Shown one piece after another: positions 37,525 through 62,891 of a stretch of 64,000 bases of DNA (within the stretch, counting starts at the first letter, position 1; every line of letters begins with the position of its first letter). The translations under genes were made by a program, and so were the position numbers. The DNA is from Polyangiales bacterium (GTDB lineage: Bacteria > Myxococcota_A > Polyangia > Polyangiales > Ga0077539), in the NCBI GenBank assembly GCA_044229975.1, contig JBGARZ010000017.1:96001-160000 (forward strand). Direction: 5' to 3'. The notes beneath the pieces are model-generated. The model saw only the letters and a program-made list of their open reading frames with translations. It made no database searches and was not told the origin of the DNA.

Positions 37525-37725
37525 CGGGAGGTAGCCATCGCCGTGCCGATCCCATCGACGCCTGCGAATAGCGGACCCGCGAGCGCAGAAGGTGCACCCG
37601 CTGCGCAGGTGATTCGCGCGGGACGGAACGGCGAGGGCGCAACCGCACCGTCACCGTCGGCAGGAACTTGACGCGTCGGCGCGTTCTCGTTTGCGGAACG
37701 GATCGTGAATTCCGTCGGCCTCACC

Positions 37726-38430
37726 ATGACGGACGACTCCAACGTGCCTGATGCCGCTTCGCCTCGTGCCCGGGTGTTGATGGTCGAGGACGAACCCTCC
37801 GCTCGTCGTGCGCTCGCCATGCTGTTGGCCGAGGAGGGCTACGAGGTCGAGACCGCCTCCTCCGGGGAGGAGGCCCTGGAGATGATCGGAGCTTCGCACC
37901 CCGACGTGCTGCTGACCGACGTGCGGATGCCGGGGATGACGGGCATCGAGCTGCTCTCCCGGGCGCGCGCAGCGGACCCTTCGCTGCCGGTGGTGGTGAT
38001 GACGGCCTTCGGCACGGTGCACGACGCGGTGCACGCGATGCGGGCCGGTGCGGACTACTACCTGACCAAGCCGATCGACTTCGACGAGCTCCGCCTGGTG
38101 CTCGGTCGGGTGCTGGAGCAGCGCGCCCTGCGCCGGGAGGCGAGCCAGCTCCGCGAACGGGTTCGCGTCGAGCATCCAGGTGCGCCTGGGCACCGACAGG
38201 CAGCGAGCGCTCTGCAGGTCACGGCGGCGCACCGTTCACGCCCTTCCAATCACCGACGCGTGTTTGATGCCGGAGACGTCACCGACCAAGTTGCTGCCGA
38301 AGCAGTGCCCGCAAGAGACCCTGCGCGACATCGGCAAGGCCAGCGTCGAGAGCGCCCAGGATCTGCGCGGTCCTCGCGGCGTCGAGTCCCCGAGCGTGTC
38401 CCAAATGCGTCCCATCGCCGTCCAAGATGA
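37726..38430 (+). pseudogene. NtrC/ZraR-type response regulator truncated after the receiver and linker
   Basis: TDVRMPGMTG, VVMTAFGTV.DAV.AMRAGA.YYLTKP.DFDEL, EQRALRRE...LRER; no AAA+ motifs follow and the sequence is non-homologous after about 38175. Confidence 0.7.
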
Positions 38431-38462: not shown

Positions 38463-38511
38463 GGGATTGAAAATCCCCGTGTCGGCAGTTCGACTCTGTC
38501 TCTGGGCACCA
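38463..38511 (+). repeat. 3' half of tRNA-Phe(GAA); att-site-like duplication, not a full tRNA
   Basis: GGGATTGAAAATCCCCGTGTCGGCAGTTCGACTCTGTCTCTGGGCACCA = anticodon arm, T arm, 3' acceptor strand and CCA; the 5' acceptor strand and D arm are missing. Confidence 0.85.
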
Positions 38512-38609
38512 ATAAACAAGCTGTTTTGAGCGATCGACGCCGGGGGGCGGATCGTCCATATGGTCCGTGGGAATCCACTCTGTCTGACACGCCGGTGACA
38601 CAGCGAGAT

Positions 38610-38745
38610 CGTCCGCGGAGGCCATTGATTCTCCAGCGAAGATCACTCGGAGAGAGGCGTCCGTAGACGCGCTCGACCATGCGGGTGTCGGCGTGACCCA
38701 TCACCGGAACGATGAGGTCGGTCGGAGCGGCGCCGCGCTCGCAGG
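38610..38745 (-). pseudogene. Tyrosine integrase C-terminal remnant
   Basis: DLIVPVMGHADTRMVERVYGRL (box II GH...Y), pointing toward the tRNA fragment; boundaries approximate. Confidence 0.7.
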
Positions 38746-38771: not shown

Positions 38772-38990
38772 CTACCACCCGCGTGGGCCCCGCGCGATGA
38801 CCCGCTTGAGCGCCGCCACGATCTGGCTTCTCTCCCGCTCGCCAACGTCGTCGGCACGAATCCTCGCGAAGACCCTTTCGCCCGCGGCCATGAATCGTTC
38901 GACTGCTTCAGGGGGGGCACGGCCTTCGGGCGGCACGAGGCGCAGGACATCGAAGGCCTCCCGCAACTCCTTGAGTTCAGGCGTCGGCAT
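38772..38990 (-). CDS. Small hypothetical protein
   Basis: 72-aa ATG ORF with helical, coding-like composition; no recognised motif. Confidence 0.4.
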   Translation of the reverse strand: MPTPELKELREAFDVLRLVPPEGRAPPEAVERFMAAGERVFARIRADDVGERERSQIVAALKRVIARGPRGW

Positions 38991-39092
38991 GGCGCGCGAT
39001 TGTAGCGCCGCCTGGAAAGCCTCCGTGCGATCTCCGGGCAGTGGAGCGGCTCTTCCGGCCGCGGGCCAACCCCAACGACCGCCCCGCGTCGG

Positions 39093-39686
39093 TCAGTGGG
39101 TGAGTCCGAGGCGAAACGCCTGAGCGGAGCCGCTGTCCGAACGGACCACCACGCAGAGGTCGCCGACGCCCTCGTTGGACGAGAAGCGGGTGGAGGTGAT
39201 GCCGGCGGTGAACACTGCACACCGACGCGCGCCACCCGGACCGACCGTCGACACACCGAGATCGAAGGTCGCGTCGCCGTCGCCCACCAGCCTCATCGCG
39301 TAGTCGACGTCGTGCTCCGGGCTGAACACGAAGTATTGCCCGACGTCGTCGGCGACGAGCGCGCCCCGCACGCACGAGCCCAGAGACCGGGCCGTCGCCA
39401 TCGTGCTGGACGAGGCGTCCGCCACGGCGCAGACCTGGGTCGGCGCCGACGCCAGGCGCGTCCCGTCGACGACATCGCCCGTCGCCAGCACGCCCGTCCC
39501 GGCGGACGCCGCGAGAGGGACGTTGACCGACGATGAGGCGATCACGTTTTCGCCCAGGGGGGACAGCGTGATGCCGACCGGCACCTCCATCGTCGCACCG
39601 TCTGCTCCGCCCGCGCACCCGTTGGCCGCGACGGTCACGATCGCCACGAAAGCCGAAATCCATGACTTCTTCATGAGCTTTTCCAT
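39093..39686 (-). CDS. Putative lipoprotein downstream of the riboswitch
   Basis: MKKSWISAFVAIVTVAANGC lipobox-like signal; beta-rich with four further Cys; the start may be ATG 39674. Confidence 0.7.
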   Translation of the reverse strand: MEKLMKKSWISAFVAIVTVAANGCAGGADGATMEVPVGITLSPLGENVIASSSVNVPLAASAGTGVLATGDVVDGTRLASAPTQVCAVADASSSTMATARSLGSCVRGALVADDVGQYFVFSPEHDVDYAMRLVGDGDATFDLGVSTVGPGGARRCAVFTAGITSTRFSSNEGVGDLCVVVRSDSGSAQAFRLGLTH

Positions 39687-39764
39687 TCAGCAACCCAGCC
39701 AACTCTTTCGAGTCCCGTAGGCTTTGCGTCCCCCGCTCGCGCGAGGTTTGCCGTTATTGTGGAG
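39683..39764 (-). ncRNA. Cyclic di-GMP-I (GEMM-I) riboswitch
   Basis: Minus strand CCACAATAACGGCAAACCTCGC-GCGA-GCGGGGGACGCAAAGCCTACGGGACTCGAAAGAGTTGGCTGGGTTGCTGAATGG: GCAAACC, GNRA loop, GGGACGCAAAGCC and GGTTGC match the GEMM consensus. Confidence 0.88.
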
Positions 39765-40086
39765 TGAGCTCCGCCGACGGTGAGGTCGGTGCGGTGGCCC
39801 GCCTGACGAGCCCGCTGTCACCTGCGTGGGTGACGAGGGGGCGTCGTTCACTAGACTGATATCGGCAGGTCTGCGGAGACCTTGAGCGGGAAAATGGATC
39901 CCCGTCACTTCTTCGTTGATCCGATGGAGGCATGCCCGGGCGGTTGCCGTCGCGGAGGATGGCCCTATGCAGTGCCGCGGTTTTGATCCCGGCTGACCAT
40001 CTCGCGGCGGTAGAGTGCGCCCCAGTGGGTGGCCTGTTGCACCGCCTTCAACCGTGAACGCAGCGACACCATCGGATGGGTTGGCC

Positions 40087-42030
40087 ATGACGACCGTGCT
40101 CGTGATCGATGACAACGATGTCGACCGCGAGCAGATCCGCCGCCTGCTGTCCGGGCGGCACGATTTGATGGAGGCCGCGACGGCGCGGGAAGGTCTGTCC
40201 CTGATCGCGTCCGCGTCGGTGGATTGTGTGCTCCTGGACTACCGCCTGCCGGACGAGGACGGCGTGCGGGTGCTCGACCTGTTGGCGGGTCGCCTCCTCC
40301 CGATCGTGATGCTGACCTCGCAGGGGAGCGAGCAGGTCGCGGTCGAGGCGCTGAAGCACGGCGCGGTGGACTACCTCCTCAAGAGCGAGCTCACCCGCGA
40401 CCGCTTGCAGAAGGTGGTGGAGGTCGCCATCGAGCAGGGTCGCCTCCGGCAGGAGCTCGACCGCAACCAGCGCGCGCTGGAGCTCGCCGTCGGCCAACTG
40501 CGCGAGCAGCGCAACGAGCTCGCGGCCGCCAACCGGGCCCTCCAGCTACGTGAGGAGCACCTGCGCTTCGTGCTCGCGCAGCTTCCGGTGCTGCACTGGA
40601 CCACCGACACCACGCTCTCGATCACCCATGTGGGCGGCGCCGTCCTCGACACGATCGGAGGGAGCGCGACGGAGTATGTCGGGCAGACCGCGCGGGTCCT
40701 GCTCGGGGAGACCGAGGCGGAGGAGATGGACGCGCTCCATGCGCGAGCCCTCGCGGGCGAGGCGGGCGCGCACATCGCCGCCCGCAGCGGTCGCACGTAC
40801 CAGTGTCATGTCGGGGCGTTGCGTGACGAGGGCAGCGCCATCGTCGGGACGGTGGGGCTGGCGCTCGACGTGACCGCGGCGCGCGAGACCGAGCAACAGC
40901 TCCGTCACGCGGTGAAGATGGACGCGCTCGGCCAGCTCGCGGGCGGCGTCGCGCACGACTTCAACAACCTGCTGTCGGTGATCCTGGGCTTCGCGGGGTT
41001 CATGAAGGACGCGCTGCCCGCGGAGAGCGAGCTGCGTGACGACCTCGAACAGGTCCTCGGTGCGGCGCAGCGAGCCGCGGTGCTGGTGCGGCAGCTCCTG
41101 ACCTTCTCGCGGGTGTCGACCTCGGCGCCGCGCGTGGTGGTGGCCGCCGAGGTGGTCGGCGCCACCCTCCCGATGCTGCGACGCCTCGTGGGCGAGGACG
41201 TCGTGCTCACGCTCGCGGCCGCTCCGATGCCCTGGCGCGTCCGTATCGACCCGCACGCCCTGGAGCAGGTGGTGGTCAACCTCACGGTCAACGCGCGCGA
41301 CGCGATGACCCGCGGCGGCCGCATCGAGATCGAGGTCCAGCACGTGAGCCTCTCGGAAGAGCTCGCCCACTCGCGCAACCACCATCTCCCGGCTGGCGAC
41401 TACCTGGTGCTGTGCGTGACGGACGAGGGGGATGGCATCCCCCGTGACGTCCTGGAGCGCGTGTTCGACCCCTTCTTCACCACGAAGGAGGTGGGCCGTG
41501 GCACCGGCCTCGGACTCAGCACCGTCTACGGCATCGCGCGGCAGAGCGGCGGAACCGTCACGGTGTATTCGGAGCTCGGGCACGGCAGCTCGTTTCGCGT
41601 GTATCTCCCGCGCGCCCTCGACGCGGAGGACGCCGTCGGCAACGCCCTGACGCCCGTCCCTTCGGGCAGCGAGACGGTGCTGCTGGTCGAGGACGAGGAG
41701 CCGGTGCGGGCGGTCGCTGCACGCGCCCTGCGTAGGCTGGGCTACACGGTGATCGAGGCGTCGGATGGGGCCTCCGCGATCGCCCTCTGCCGCGAGACGT
41801 CGACGGCGATCGACCTGGTGCTGACGGACGTCGTGATGCCGGGGCTCGCCGGCCCGGAGGTGGCCTGCGCGCTGCTGGAGCTTCGCCCGACGCTGCGGGT
41901 GCTCTACATGTCGGGCTACACCGACCGCGCCGCGCGCGAGCGAGGAAGGCTCCCTCCCGACGCGCGGCTTATCGAGAAGCCGTTGACGCTCGACCGACTC
42001 GGACGAGCGGTGCGCGCGGCGCTCGGCTGA
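40087..42030 (+). CDS. Hybrid histidine kinase (REC-PAS-HisKA-HATPase-REC)
   Basis: LLDYRLPDEDG; LAGGVAHDFNNLL; NARDAM; FDPFFTTK..GRGTGLGL; C-terminal TDVVMPG. Confidence 0.93.
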   Translation: MTTVLVIDDNDVDREQIRRLLSGRHDLMEAATAREGLSLIASASVDCVLLDYRLPDEDGVRVLDLLAGRLLPIVMLTSQGSEQVAVEALKHGAVDYLLKSELTRDRLQKVVEVAIEQGRLRQELDRNQRALELAVGQLREQRNELAAANRALQLREEHLRFVLAQLPVLHWTTDTTLSITHVGGAVLDTIGGSATEYVGQTARVLLGETEAEEMDALHARALAGEAGAHIAARSGRTYQCHVGALRDEGSAIVGTVGLALDVTAARETEQQLRHAVKMDALGQLAGGVAHDFNNLLSVILGFAGFMKDALPAESELRDDLEQVLGAAQRAAVLVRQLLTFSRVSTSAPRVVVAAEVVGATLPMLRRLVGEDVVLTLAAAPMPWRVRIDPHALEQVVVNLTVNARDAMTRGGRIEIEVQHVSLSEELAHSRNHHLPAGDYLVLCVTDEGDGIPRDVLERVFDPFFTTKEVGRGTGLGLSTVYGIARQSGGTVTVYSELGHGSSFRVYLPRALDAEDAVGNALTPVPSGSETVLLVEDEEPVRAVAARALRRLGYTVIEASDGASAIALCRETSTAIDLVLTDVVMPGLAGPEVACALLELRPTLRVLYMSGYTDRAARERGRLPPDARLIEKPLTLDRLGRAVRAALG

Positions 42031-60403: not shown

Positions 60404-61558
60404 ATGAGCGCAGTAGTGCCAGAGGGACAGGATGCGATCGACGCCAATCGTCGGGTGCTCGTCGTCGACGACGACGCCTCGGTGCGGAGCCTGTTGCGGA
60501 GGGTGGTGCGCCACGAGGGATACACCTGCGTCGACGCCGCGTCGGTGGAGGAGGCGCTCGAACAATTGGACGCCGTCGACGTGGTCGTCGCCGACCTTCA
60601 ACTGGGCGACCTGACAGGGATCGATCTATTGCAGGCCATGCGGAAGCGGCACCTCGATCAGCCGTTCATCCTACTGACAGGCAGACCCAGCCTCGAATCA
60701 GCCACGGCAGCCGTTGAACACGGTGCGTATCGCTATCTGCTCAAGCCCTTCGTTCCGGCCGACCTCGGGCGCCTCCTGCGAGACGCCGTCCAGTCGCGCG
60801 CCCCGCACCAGACCCTCGCGCCGCCGGAGGGTCGCGGGAAGCTGGAGCGCAGCCTTCAGTCGGCCCTCGACCAGGCGTGGATCGCATTGCAGCCCGTGGT
60901 CGCGACGAGCACCCATGCCTCCATCGGCTACGAGTGCCTCCTGCGGTCGCGCAGCGCGGAGCTGCCCCACCCTGGCGTGATCCTGGAGGCCGCCGAGCGC
61001 CTGGGCTCCCTGCAAGACCTCGGTCGACGCATTCGCGCGATGGCCACGGACGTGATCGAGGGCTCCCCGGATGCCTGCACGTTCTACGTCAACCTGCACC
61101 CCGCCGACCTCGCCGACCCGGAGCTTTGCGATCGCATGTCCCCGCTGTCGCGCGTGGCGTCGCGCGTCATCCTGGAGCTCACCGAGCGGAGCCCGCTGGA
61201 GGGGGGCACCCGCTTGAACGCGACCCTCGCCTCGCTCCGTTCGCTGGGCTTCCGCATCGCCGTCGACGACCTCGGCGCGGGCTACGCGGGGCTCAGCTAC
61301 TTCACCGAGGTTCACCCGGAGGTGGTCAAGCTCGACATGTCGCTCGTCCGCGGCATCGACAAGGATGAGGTGAAGCGGCGGGTGGTGCAGTCGATGACCG
61401 AGCTCGCCCTCTCCCTCGGCATCGAGGTCGTGGGCGAGGGGGTGGAGACCGTCGGGGAGCGCGACACGCTCGCCAGCATCGGGTGCACGCACCTCCAGGG
61501 CTACCTCTTCGCGAGGCCCTCTCCGCCCTACCCCACCGCGCGGTGGGACCACGTGTGA
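60404..61558 (+). CDS. REC-EAL phosphodiesterase
   Basis: REC, then QPVV, ECLLR (EAL variant), VN, ELTE, DDLGAGY, KLD, EGVE, QGY. Confidence 0.9.
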   Translation: MSAVVPEGQDAIDANRRVLVVDDDASVRSLLRRVVRHEGYTCVDAASVEEALEQLDAVDVVVADLQLGDLTGIDLLQAMRKRHLDQPFILLTGRPSLESATAAVEHGAYRYLLKPFVPADLGRLLRDAVQSRAPHQTLAPPEGRGKLERSLQSALDQAWIALQPVVATSTHASIGYECLLRSRSAELPHPGVILEAAERLGSLQDLGRRIRAMATDVIEGSPDACTFYVNLHPADLADPELCDRMSPLSRVASRVILELTERSPLEGGTRLNATLASLRSLGFRIAVDDLGAGYAGLSYFTEVHPEVVKLDMSLVRGIDKDEVKRRVVQSMTELALSLGIEVVGEGVETVGERDTLASIGCTHLQGYLFARPSPPYPTARWDHV

Positions 61559-61595
61559 CGCTCCTCCTTCCCGCAGACGCGATCGAGGCACTCGG

Positions 61596-62891
61596 ATGAA
61601 GATGGTCATCGTCGACGACAACTCGGCTGCCAGGGAGCGCAGCCACCCACCGTCCGGGCAGAGGAGCGCGATCATGGGCACGGACTCCGCGCCGGGCACC
61701 TTCGCCGGGCTCTCGGCGGGCTCCATCGACTGCGTGCTGCTCGACTACCCCGACTCGCTCCCGGTGCTGCACTGGGCGACCGACCGCACCTCCACCGTCA
61801 CCTACCTCGGCGGGGCGAGCCTCCAGCGGCTGGGCCTGCACGCCGTGTCGAGCGTCGGCCTGGGCGTCGGGATTCTCACCGAAGACGCCGTGGCGCGGGC
61901 CCACATGGAGCGGGCGCACCAGCGGGCGATGGACGGCGTCGAGACGACGTTTCGCGCCGACCTGGGCGGGCGCTTCTTCCGCTGCCACGTCGCCCCGCTG
62001 CGGGCGCGGGACGGCGCCGCGGTCGGAGCGAGGGGGGTGGCGCTGGACATCACCGACCAGATCAATCTGGAGCGGCAGATCCGTCACGTCGTGAAGACGG
62101 AGGCGGTGGGTCGCCTGGCGGGGAGCGTCGCGCACGACCTCAACAACTGCCTCTCGGCCATGCTCGGGTTCGTCGGCTACGCGCGGGAGACGCTCGGCGC
62201 CGAGACCTCCGCCGCGGCCGACCTCGACGAGGTGCTGCGCGTGGGAGACAGGGCCGTCGAGCTGATCCGGCAGTTCATGAGCTTCGCCCGGTCGCCGACG
62301 ACCGATGTCCGGGCGATCGACGTCGCGGCATCCCTCGAAGCGGCGCTCCCGCTGCTCCGGCGCATCGCGGGCGCCGACGTCCGGCTCTCTCTCGTCCGCG
62401 AGGACGATCTGTGGGGCAGCGACCTCGACCCGTCGCTGCTGGAGCAGGCCGTGATCAACCTCGTGCTCAACGCCTGCGACGCGATGCCCGAGGGCGGCCG
62501 GGTCGACCTCACGCTGCACAATGCCAGCGTCGGGGAGGCGATCGTCCAGGGCCCCAGGCGGCGGGTGGAGCCCGGCGAATACGTGGTGCTGTCGGTGTCC
62601 GACGAAGGGCACGGTATTCCGCGCGACATTCAAGACAGCATCTTCGATCCGTACTTCTCCACCAGGACGCGGGGCCACGGCAGCGGGCTCGGCCTCAGCA
62701 CCGTCCGCGAGATCGCGCTCCAGATGGGCGGGGCAGTCATGGTCGACTCGGAGGTCGGCAAGGGGACGACCTTCCGCGTCTACCTCCCCCGGACGCCAAC
62801 CGCCACCGGGCGCGTCGGTTCGCCATCGCTGTCGCGAGGGTACGAAGACCCCAACACCGCTCACCGCTCAGTCGTGAGGAGCCATCCATGA
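61596..62891 (+). CDS. Histidine kinase, internally deleted paralog of 40087..42030
   Basis: IDCVLLDY joined directly to LPVLHW (PAS); VAHDLNN, NACDAM, GSGLGL; no C-terminal REC. Confidence 0.8.
   Translation: MKMVIVDDNSAARERSHPPSGQRSAIMGTDSAPGTFAGLSAGSIDCVLLDYPDSLPVLHWATDRTSTVTYLGGASLQRLGLHAVSSVGLGVGILTEDAVARAHMERAHQRAMDGVETTFRADLGGRFFRCHVAPLRARDGAAVGARGVALDITDQINLERQIRHVVKTEAVGRLAGSVAHDLNNCLSAMLGFVGYARETLGAETSAAADLDEVLRVGDRAVELIRQFMSFARSPTTDVRAIDVAASLEAALPLLRRIAGADVRLSLVREDDLWGSDLDPSLLEQAVINLVLNACDAMPEGGRVDLTLHNASVGEAIVQGPRRRVEPGEYVVLSVSDEGHGIPRDIQDSIFDPYFSTRTRGHGSGLGLSTVREIALQMGGAVMVDSEVGKGTTFRVYLPRTPTATGRVGSPSLSRGYEDPNTAHRSVVRSHP

Follow-up and report, generated by a model that had tools for sequence, protein, structure and literature searches.

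The minus strand of a 64,000-nt stretch of Polyangiales DNA (contig JBGARZ010000017.1, positions 96,001 to 160,000; hereafter the window) carries an RNA element of the c-di-GMP riboswitch type directly ahead of a gene for a predicted lipoprotein, and genes for cyclic dinucleotide signalling are found elsewhere in the same window. This locus raises the question of which ligand the element senses, how it would act on the gene behind it, and whether it serves the neighbouring signalling genes or the cell at large.

The aptamer and the start of the gene

In the Rfam scan of the window (Infernal), RF01051 (c-di-GMP-I) was the sole match, spanning model positions 1-87, i.e., the whole model, with a score above its gathering score of 35. 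The match and the gene are located as follows:

39686..39762, minus strand: c-di-GMP-I (GEMM-I) aptamer, RF01051, 55.2 bits, E 4.7e-8
39093..39674, minus strand: 193-aa predicted lipoprotein (database protein P0001)

The element is a genuine class I c-di-GMP riboswitch aptamer. The initial annotation had described a full GEMM-I aptamer with G at position 20 and C at position 92 and had named a covariance-model search as the check; this search, run here, agrees with it, and both bases are present. The Vc2-equivalent pocket consists of G20 (G 39752), A47 (A 39725), the stacking position of the class I c-di-GMP pocket, and C92 (C 39690), and the three bases are unchanged in 8/8 homologous leaders. 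As the riboswitch is a textbook member of the RF01051 family, which any Rfam scan detects, the aptamer by itself is unsurprising. A single RF01051 match was found in the source genome, a myxobacterial one of 10.0 Mb that is 93% complete (150 of 175 candidates scored).

Helices P1, P2 and P3 can be formed across the eight homologues, with 205 of 205 scored cells paired over 26 pairs, against 27-43% in slid controls, the structure having been drawn from one of the sequences. Two one-sided changes were seen in these pairs, both still pairing, and no compensatory change was found among the 8 leaders over the 26 aptamer pairs; the aptamer is therefore backed within the genus by conservation and not by covariation. 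It is nearly invariant, compared with encoded proteins down to about 38-44% identity. The c-di-GMP-I-GGC variant (RF03167) also matches, at 54.9 bits, yet below its gathering score of 59, and was rejected; the window has A47 where the consensus of that model has G, and its pair 14-93 is A-U instead of G-C. With a short query, RF03167 outranks RF01051 by E-value.

The ORF has two possible starts, at 39686 and 39674, and the 193 aa of P0001 correspond to the second. Because 3/8 homologous leaders have the first ATG out of frame, which led to its rejection, and the downstream start, 11-12 nt past the aptamer, is retained in 8/8, the start codon is likely 39674 and the ATG at 39686 is likely part of the RNA structure. 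The 3' strand of P1 had initially been placed over the first ATG and the ribosome-binding region; the overlap with both is present, but translation likely begins at the later codon. The predicted elements around this start are:

39758..39763, minus strand: P1 5' strand (UCCACA), in a register (A14-U93/C13-G94) that agrees with the P1 pairs of RF03167
39682..39689, minus strand: P1 3' strand (UGAAUGGA) with the predicted Shine-Dalgarno (SD) core GGA; UGGA in 8/8 leaders
39675..39679, minus strand: predicted P1 extension, AGCUC with GAGCU (39771-39767), from a P1-constrained fold
39761..39772, minus strand: predicted anti-P1 hairpin (GGAG/CUCC), from the minimum free energy (MFE) fold of the window leader

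Directly 3' of the Rfam match, UGGA is invariant in the eight leaders, with a spacer of 7-8 nt to the start; it pairs with UCCA, closing P1, and the same bases hold the predicted SD, which in the window lies at 39684-39682, 7 nt ahead of the start codon. The predicted SD in the window is weak, consisting of GGA only; its spacing fits the genome-wide peak of GGA at 6-9 nt ahead of ATG, and the assembly yielded no 16S 3' tail. The P1 extension would add five pairs and cover the spacer up to the AUG (outer pair probability 0.49), with incomplete conservation among the homologues. In the window leader at its MFE, the anti-P1 hairpin sequesters the P1 5' strand; over the full predicted leader the pair probability is 0.55 for P1 versus 0.43 for this hairpin, a near-equality that a switch would need. 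The hairpin stem is intact in four of the eight leaders, one of them with an altered loop. In ligand-free folds the unpaired probability of the GGA ranges from 0.05 to 0.94, depending on the leader and the length chosen, and folds with an open ribosome-binding site cost 0.8-7.4 kcal/mol above the MFE.

Transcription attenuation was rejected, as no terminator-like site was found within 38900-40200 and merely 11-12 nt separate the aptamer from the start. The translational control claimed earlier agrees with this, together with the predicted SD inside P1 and its spacer of 7-8 nt. Judged from this layout, the aptamer, whose P1 holds the predicted SD of the lipoprotein gene, is probably a translational OFF switch at high c-di-GMP. 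In the ligand-free state, the small upstream hairpin would hold the P1 5' strand and leave the ribosome-binding site partly open; binding of c-di-GMP through G20/A47/C92 would clamp UGGA and the spacer under P1 and its extension. Such an element offers a clean test case, being a minimal translational switch with the SD inside P1.

Among characterized riboswitches of the c-di-GMP-I/GEMM-I type (RF01051), the element resembles Vc2, upstream of tfoY in Vibrio cholerae, in its G20/A47/C92 pocket, in its P2 tetraloop and P3, and in the predicted OFF action on translation. In Vc2, as given in excerpts of the source, P1 closure requires the ligand and the switch is OFF, P1 ends ~100 nt ahead of the start codon, and a downstream anti-RBS element has been proposed (bioRxiv 10.1101/617340). 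Unlike in Vc2, the predicted SD of the window lies within P1 itself, 11 nt from the start, without a separate downstream platform.

Promoter motif, gene neighbourhood and signalling genes

The leaders, divergent elsewhere, have in common a motif roughly 100 nt upstream of the aptamer that suggests the following feature:

39859..39885, minus strand: predicted sigma28 (FliA)-type promoter, motif conserved across leaders

The motif consists of a -35 TCAAG (39885-39881), a 15-nt spacer to CCGATA, and a -10 box at 39866-39859. Across the 8 leaders, the -35 is TCAAG in five, TTAAG in two and divergent in one, CCGAT is present in 7/8, and the boxes are 15-16 nt apart. The TCAAG-N15-CCGATA of the window fits the sigma28 pattern of a TTAAG/TAAAG-type -35, a CCGATA -10 and 15-16 nt spacing; it is similar to the Bdellovibrio FliA consensus TTAAG-N16-CCGATA (PMC3627812) and also resembles E. 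coli FliA sites (PMC4183435), as excerpts of these papers give them. The sigma70 promoter scan returned nothing. A candidate factor is encoded on contig C20 of the same genome, a 244-aa FliA/WhiG-like sigma matching TIGR02479 over its full length (165 bits, under the cut-off of 189.6), with close homologues in 8/8 congeners; in genome G023 the sigma28-like sigma is present in five or more close copies. Genome-wide, the strict motif precedes seven genes at spacers of 14-15 nt, versus at most two at any other single spacer, and one of the seven is a Rec-EAL gene on contig C25; the relaxed motif showed no genome-wide enrichment. The sigma28-type promoter step is a lead, in which the FliA-like sigma would transcribe a leader of ~180 nt from the conserved motif. 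None of the sequencing runs with this stretch covers more than 0.21 of it, and no RNA reads of the source organism were found; one DNA run and three RNA runs from soil yielded no more than short contig pieces, mostly of related aptamers, which are uninformative on expression here.

A similar combination is known from the FliA regulon of Bdellovibrio bacteriovorus, where sigma28 drives non-flagellar surface genes in a host that has a c-di-GMP riboswitch RNA (PMC3627812, in the sections available). The Bdellovibrio merRNA is without a conserved downstream ORF and is, in the same sections, unmarked as FliA-driven (PMC3627812). Unlike Bdellovibrio, the genome studied here has no flagellin match, and its riboswitch stands ahead of a conserved ORF.

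The riboswitch and the gene travel together in the genus. The lipoprotein was found in 7 of 31 family genomes, all of the same genus (6/8 congeners, 0/22 others), and RF01051 in six of the 31 (at most 99 candidates scored per genome), with seven matches, all seven directly ahead of the lipoprotein gene. Among the 31 family genomes, riboswitch and lipoprotein gene occur together in one genus only, and the riboswitch marks an unstudied genus-level lipoprotein family as a predicted c-di-GMP output. With homologous loci obtained twice counted once, the aptamer is retained in 7/9 homologous loci scanned, and in the two loci without it the 5' end of the gene is lost as well. At locus L005, leader and coding region are joined directly and are ~230 nt shorter than at L002, possibly through a deletion or a collapse of the assembly. 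At L014 / L024 8051-10015, the lipoprotein homologue of genome G024 is frameshifted near its C-terminus, which is either real or an assembly error.

The initial annotation had taken the protein as an output of an adjacent GGDEF/EAL/PilZ/MshEN locus. These genes are indeed in the window (two GGDEF, one EAL, one PilZ and two MshEN-ATPase genes) at an uncommon density, but they are 7.6-23 kb away and were seen at none of the nine homologous loci, within flanks of at most 10 kb per side. From the start codon, the distances are 7.6 and 12.9 kb to the MshEN ATPases, 15.2 and 19 kb to the GGDEFs, 20.8 kb to the EAL and 23.2 kb to the PilZ gene. That the lipoprotein is a dedicated output of this cluster, reading local c-di-GMP, is a reading we consider unlikely. 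The cluster is real, both GGDEFs having the canonical Asp, and such proximity is uncommon, since in the same genome 6.4% of genes have a GGDEF/EAL gene no farther than 15.2 kb away, and for 0.9% a range of 25 kb takes in at least three such genes; furthermore, the sigma28-type motif precedes PilZ in two congeners as well as the Rec-EAL gene on contig C25. Against it, GGDEF/EAL/PilZ/MshEN genes were near the gene in 0/9 homologous loci, with flanks of at most 10 kb per side, so that the 15-23 kb range was partly covered. At five of the nine loci the gene stands in another neighbourhood, conserved among the five and with its orthologues on other contigs in the source genome, and the remaining four fall into three further neighbourhoods; among the matches listed (188 further ones not included), congener matches to the 44-64 kb block of the window are scattered over other contigs than those of the lipoprotein gene.

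The gene is also 370 nt from remnants of an integration junction, which suggests relocation:

38639..38719, minus strand: tyrosine-integrase C-terminus remnant (27 codons), with 74% identity (27 aa) to a contig C8 ORF
38463..38513, plus strand: 3' half of a tRNA-Phe gene, attachment-site-like, 94% to the tRNA-Phe of C8

The C8 integrase ORF matches Pfam PF00589 (E 3.4e-10) and points toward a whole tRNA-Phe, and contig C18 has, next to an integrase-like ORF, a fragment with 96% identity to the tRNA-Phe fragment of the window; no whole tRNA was found within the window. Three related integrase/tRNA-Phe junctions are present in the genome, at window 38463-38719, C8:21008-22342 and C18:37747-39174. 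Promoter, riboswitch and gene probably move as a cassette. Next to the junction, a receiver-domain gene (window 37705-38430, plus strand) loses its coding character after about 38190 and resembles a response regulator truncated at the integration junction. A short ORF with an MPTPEL start (window 38775-38995, minus strand, about 70 codons) separates the integrase remnant from the lipoprotein gene.

A dedicated link to the signalling cluster is at most weakly suggested by these observations, and the preferred reading is a switch that would read the general cellular c-di-GMP pool instead of a dedicated neighbouring enzyme. Since the same sigma28-type motif is found before PilZ in two congeners, a shared regulon is possible despite the non-conserved shared locus. 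Of three congener loci examined, two have sigma28-like genes next to the PilZ gene, and in two the PilZ gene carries the motif. The cluster is conserved in the congeners (L063 4883-10628, L064 4308-10881, L065 1089-6551) and comprises PilZ, two Ser/Thr kinase-like genes and a gene for a predicted exported protein, together with the sigma28-like sigma in L063 and L064; sigma28-type motifs stand ahead of PilZ and of a kinase. This PilZ/sigma/kinase cluster is split in the source genome (G000) between C17, at the window end, and C20. The Rec-EAL gene of the window (60455-62891 region) has an 85%-identical duplicate at G000 C15:31076-32303, and the start of the kinase following it, at 61596, resembles a decayed receiver domain.

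The predicted lipoprotein

The N-terminus of P0001 has an MKK start, a hydrophobic stretch at residues 5-17 and a predicted signal peptide (residues 1-19) followed by Cys20 (39617-39615), a low-confidence linker and a C-terminal domain. G19-C20 and Cys82, 101, 152 and 174 are invariant in 12/12 aligned homologues. Measured against the lipobox consensus, the -3/-2 residues (A, N) deviate, and the N-terminal signal looks like a lipoprotein signal with a non-canonical lipobox; the protein may accordingly be placed at the surface, as far as its sequence suggests. The homologues found amount to 15 proteins with 44-100% identity, three of them added by profile search. P0001 has no Pfam or NCBIfam family, in agreement with its first description as an unknown lipoprotein, and one other homologue has one weak unrelated match in each. 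No paralogue was found in the source genome, no solved structure was matched by sequence below E 0.1, and no longer forms or fused architectures were found, the latter being weak evidence. The C-terminal half gave the following prediction:

39096..39407, minus strand: predicted PPC/collagen-binding-domain-like beta-sandwich (residues about 90-193), from AlphaFold2 and structure search

AlphaFold2, with a 12-row alignment, gave a nine-strand domain with pLDDT 71-83 over residues 101-193 and a low-confidence N-terminal half; the single-sequence fold of the C-terminal domain had pLDDT 40. The structure search, also proposed at the outset, put PliG, collagen-binding (CBD) and PPC folds on top, but these are tied and no Foldseek match was at E 0.001 or better. 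The VIA-align Z scores were 9.3 for PliG, 9.2 and 9.1 for the ColG CBD, and 8.8 for a collagenase PPC domain, and the top seven (PliG, CBD, PPC and subtilase domains) spanned 8.2-9.3, over a background of 7-8, only just below. Foldseek ranked the same folds first (best E 2.3e-3). Among named Atlas clusters, PF04151 (PPC) scored 0.94 with a low shared count (135 features), and the unfiltered search placed unnamed phage clusters first, at 0.94-0.95, also with low shared counts. Membership in PF04151 was rejected, as 12 members gave no PF04151 match at E up to 10. A PPC/CBD-like fold is predicted for the C-terminal domain by these models. It would share with PPC (PF04151), the clostridial collagenase CBD and PliG a beta-sandwich (Z 8.6-9.3, rmsd 2.5-3.4, ~95 residues), and differs from them in having no sequence-level Pfam match, at 10-17% identity; unlike PPC and CBD appendages of proteases, the protein is a stand-alone lipoprotein with four extra conserved cysteines.

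With the riboswitch acting as proposed above, the product could instead be a periplasm-facing, PliG-like inhibitor of lysozyme or another cell-wall enzyme, in place of a module for binding or adhesion. The best VIA-align match is PliG (4dzg; rmsd 2.6 over 95 residues), E. coli PliG reaches Z 7.4, and the single-domain architecture, with no longer fused form found, agrees weakly with such a role; the top match is, however, within 1 Z unit of the collagen-binding and PPC domains at 7-10% identity, the search of solved structures by sequence gave no match below E 0.1, and the named Atlas matches are PPC clusters, which leaves an inhibitor improbable. In the preferred mechanism, the product would be an outer-membrane-anchored lipoprotein with a single PPC/CBD-like binding module, disulphide-bonded and flexibly tethered, and it would most likely bind an extracellular polymer or a partner protein in the low-c-di-GMP, motile state. 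The role of the protein is the weakest step of the mechanism, and we would put it at somewhat less than an even chance.

Mode of action, recurrence in the phylum and ligand

A c-di-GMP-binding aptamer could also act mainly through RNA stability, the ligand-locked P1 shielding the leader against 3' decay, or it could turn the gene on, with P1 freeing the SD region from inhibitory pairing with the coding sequence. The OFF action of Vc2 has been proposed to be translational, but Vc2 also stabilises an upstream small RNA in this manner (bioRxiv 10.1101/617340, in excerpts); in addition, several ligand-free folds of the leaders pair the SD or AUG with early coding sequence, and the merRNA of Bdellovibrio, lacking a conserved downstream ORF in the sections available (PMC3627812), is a precedent for a riboswitch RNA of this kind. 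Both variants are nonetheless quite unlikely here, because the SD bases are themselves P1 pairs and a bound P1 must cover the SD, the ORF is conserved with a fixed spacing of 11-12 nt in 8/8 leaders, and the same layout recurs ahead of unrelated ORFs.

This recurrence was seen across the phylum. RF01051 was found in 24/151 phylum genomes sampled (strict filters, 27 candidates scored per genome), and 30 loci were examined among 43 matches listed, with the own locus included. In 16/30 loci, a GGA lies at most 2 nt from the aptamer end and an ORF of at least 80 aa starts 6-15 nt away, and most of these ORFs have a start resembling a signal peptide, by eye. The 5' strand pairs with the SD in a helix of at least 4 bp in 14 of the 16, several of which are close kin. 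The mean SD duplex is -7.6 kcal/mol versus -4.8 (sd 2.2) for shuffled 5' strands, but own duplexes are barely better than cross-paired ones (-7.6 vs -6.8), the register being chosen as best; the inner P1 pair is present in 8/16 versus a shuffle mean of 6.4 (2278 of 10000), i.e., covariation is not above chance. The sigma28-type motif was found upstream in 5/30 loci (own included); of the six control spacer bins, five were empty and the other overlaps the test bin.

For Myxococcota, these observations tentatively suggest a compact and portable cassette of sigma28 promoter, GEMM-I aptamer with P1 as a lock on the ribosome-binding site, and exported protein, redeployed in front of numerous unrelated secreted proteins, with a c-di-GMP (G20) and a cGAMP-type (A20) version, a reading that we would sooner doubt than accept. 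In the own genus, the cassette would be a double gate, with the FliA-like sigma turning a PPC-fold surface lipoprotein on and c-di-GMP turning it off, and the regulon of this sigma, in a host with no flagellin found, might also include PilZ, EAL and kinase genes; both parts are equally tentative. The recurring combination of sigma28 motif and SD-in-P1 layout is the aspect most worth pursuing: if it holds, an RNA layer is added to the c-di-GMP/cGAMP control of surface proteins in the phylum. Outside subscription journals, almost nothing was found in the literature on myxobacterial c-di-GMP riboswitches, and none on the window element (searched for Myxococcota, Deltaproteobacteria, the lipoprotein, sigma28 and the GGC variant); survey supplements may list such loci.

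With G20, A47 and C92 canonical, c-di-GMP is likely the ligand, and a much likelier one than cGAMP. G20 and C92 contact the two ligand guanines, wild-type Vc2 (G20) binds cGAMP with a KD of 10 uM and c-di-GMP in the picomolar range, and A20 turns Vc2 bispecific (PMC6140456, in excerpts). Hypr cGAMP synthases have Ser/Thr where canonical cyclases have Asp, according to excerpts of PMC6456294 and PMC8835794. The preference for c-di-GMP expressed in the initial annotation is in accord with the G20/C92 pair and with the GGDEF census, made with a home-built profile on the 93%-complete genome: among 18 GGDEF domains found, none has the Hypr Ser/Thr and one has Ala at this signature position. This variant is an FHA-GGDEF protein (L062 1802-2842, contig C23) with an intact GGDEF motif. 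Two SMODS nucleotidyltransferase matches are also present (G000 C29:112921-113409 and C8:44056-44478) and possibly belong to CBASS-type defence loci. Identity with the GEMM-Ib cGAMP riboswitches was rejected, as these need A20, and the window and its homologues have G20 in 8/8. That 3'3'-cGAMP is the ligand, or that the aptamer is bispecific, is very unlikely: A20 in 5/30 phylum loci, the two SMODS matches, the Ala variant and the existence of natural bispecific aptamers (PMC6140456, in excerpts) are outweighed by the conserved G20, the affinities of G20 Vc2 (PMC6140456, likewise) and the 0/18 Hypr count in the 93%-complete assembly.

The element shares fold and clan with the Geobacter GEMM-Ib cGAMP riboswitches (Gs1761, Gm0970), which also lie upstream of exported proteins; these have A20 (PMC6140456), their hosts have Hypr GGDEFs, and at least the pgcA riboswitch acts via a terminator. 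Unlike them, the window has G20 and no terminator, and no Ser/Thr Hypr enzyme was found. The five A20 loci of the phylum (L038, L039, L040, L045 and L046), all with the SD-in-P1 layout, belong to other families and precede genes whose products are predicted to be exported. Further departures from the canonical pocket include U at the position counted as 92 in L049, L056 and L059, possibly a register effect, and an altered P2 base (GGCACC...TCCGC) in L050-L052; both groups may represent variant pockets.
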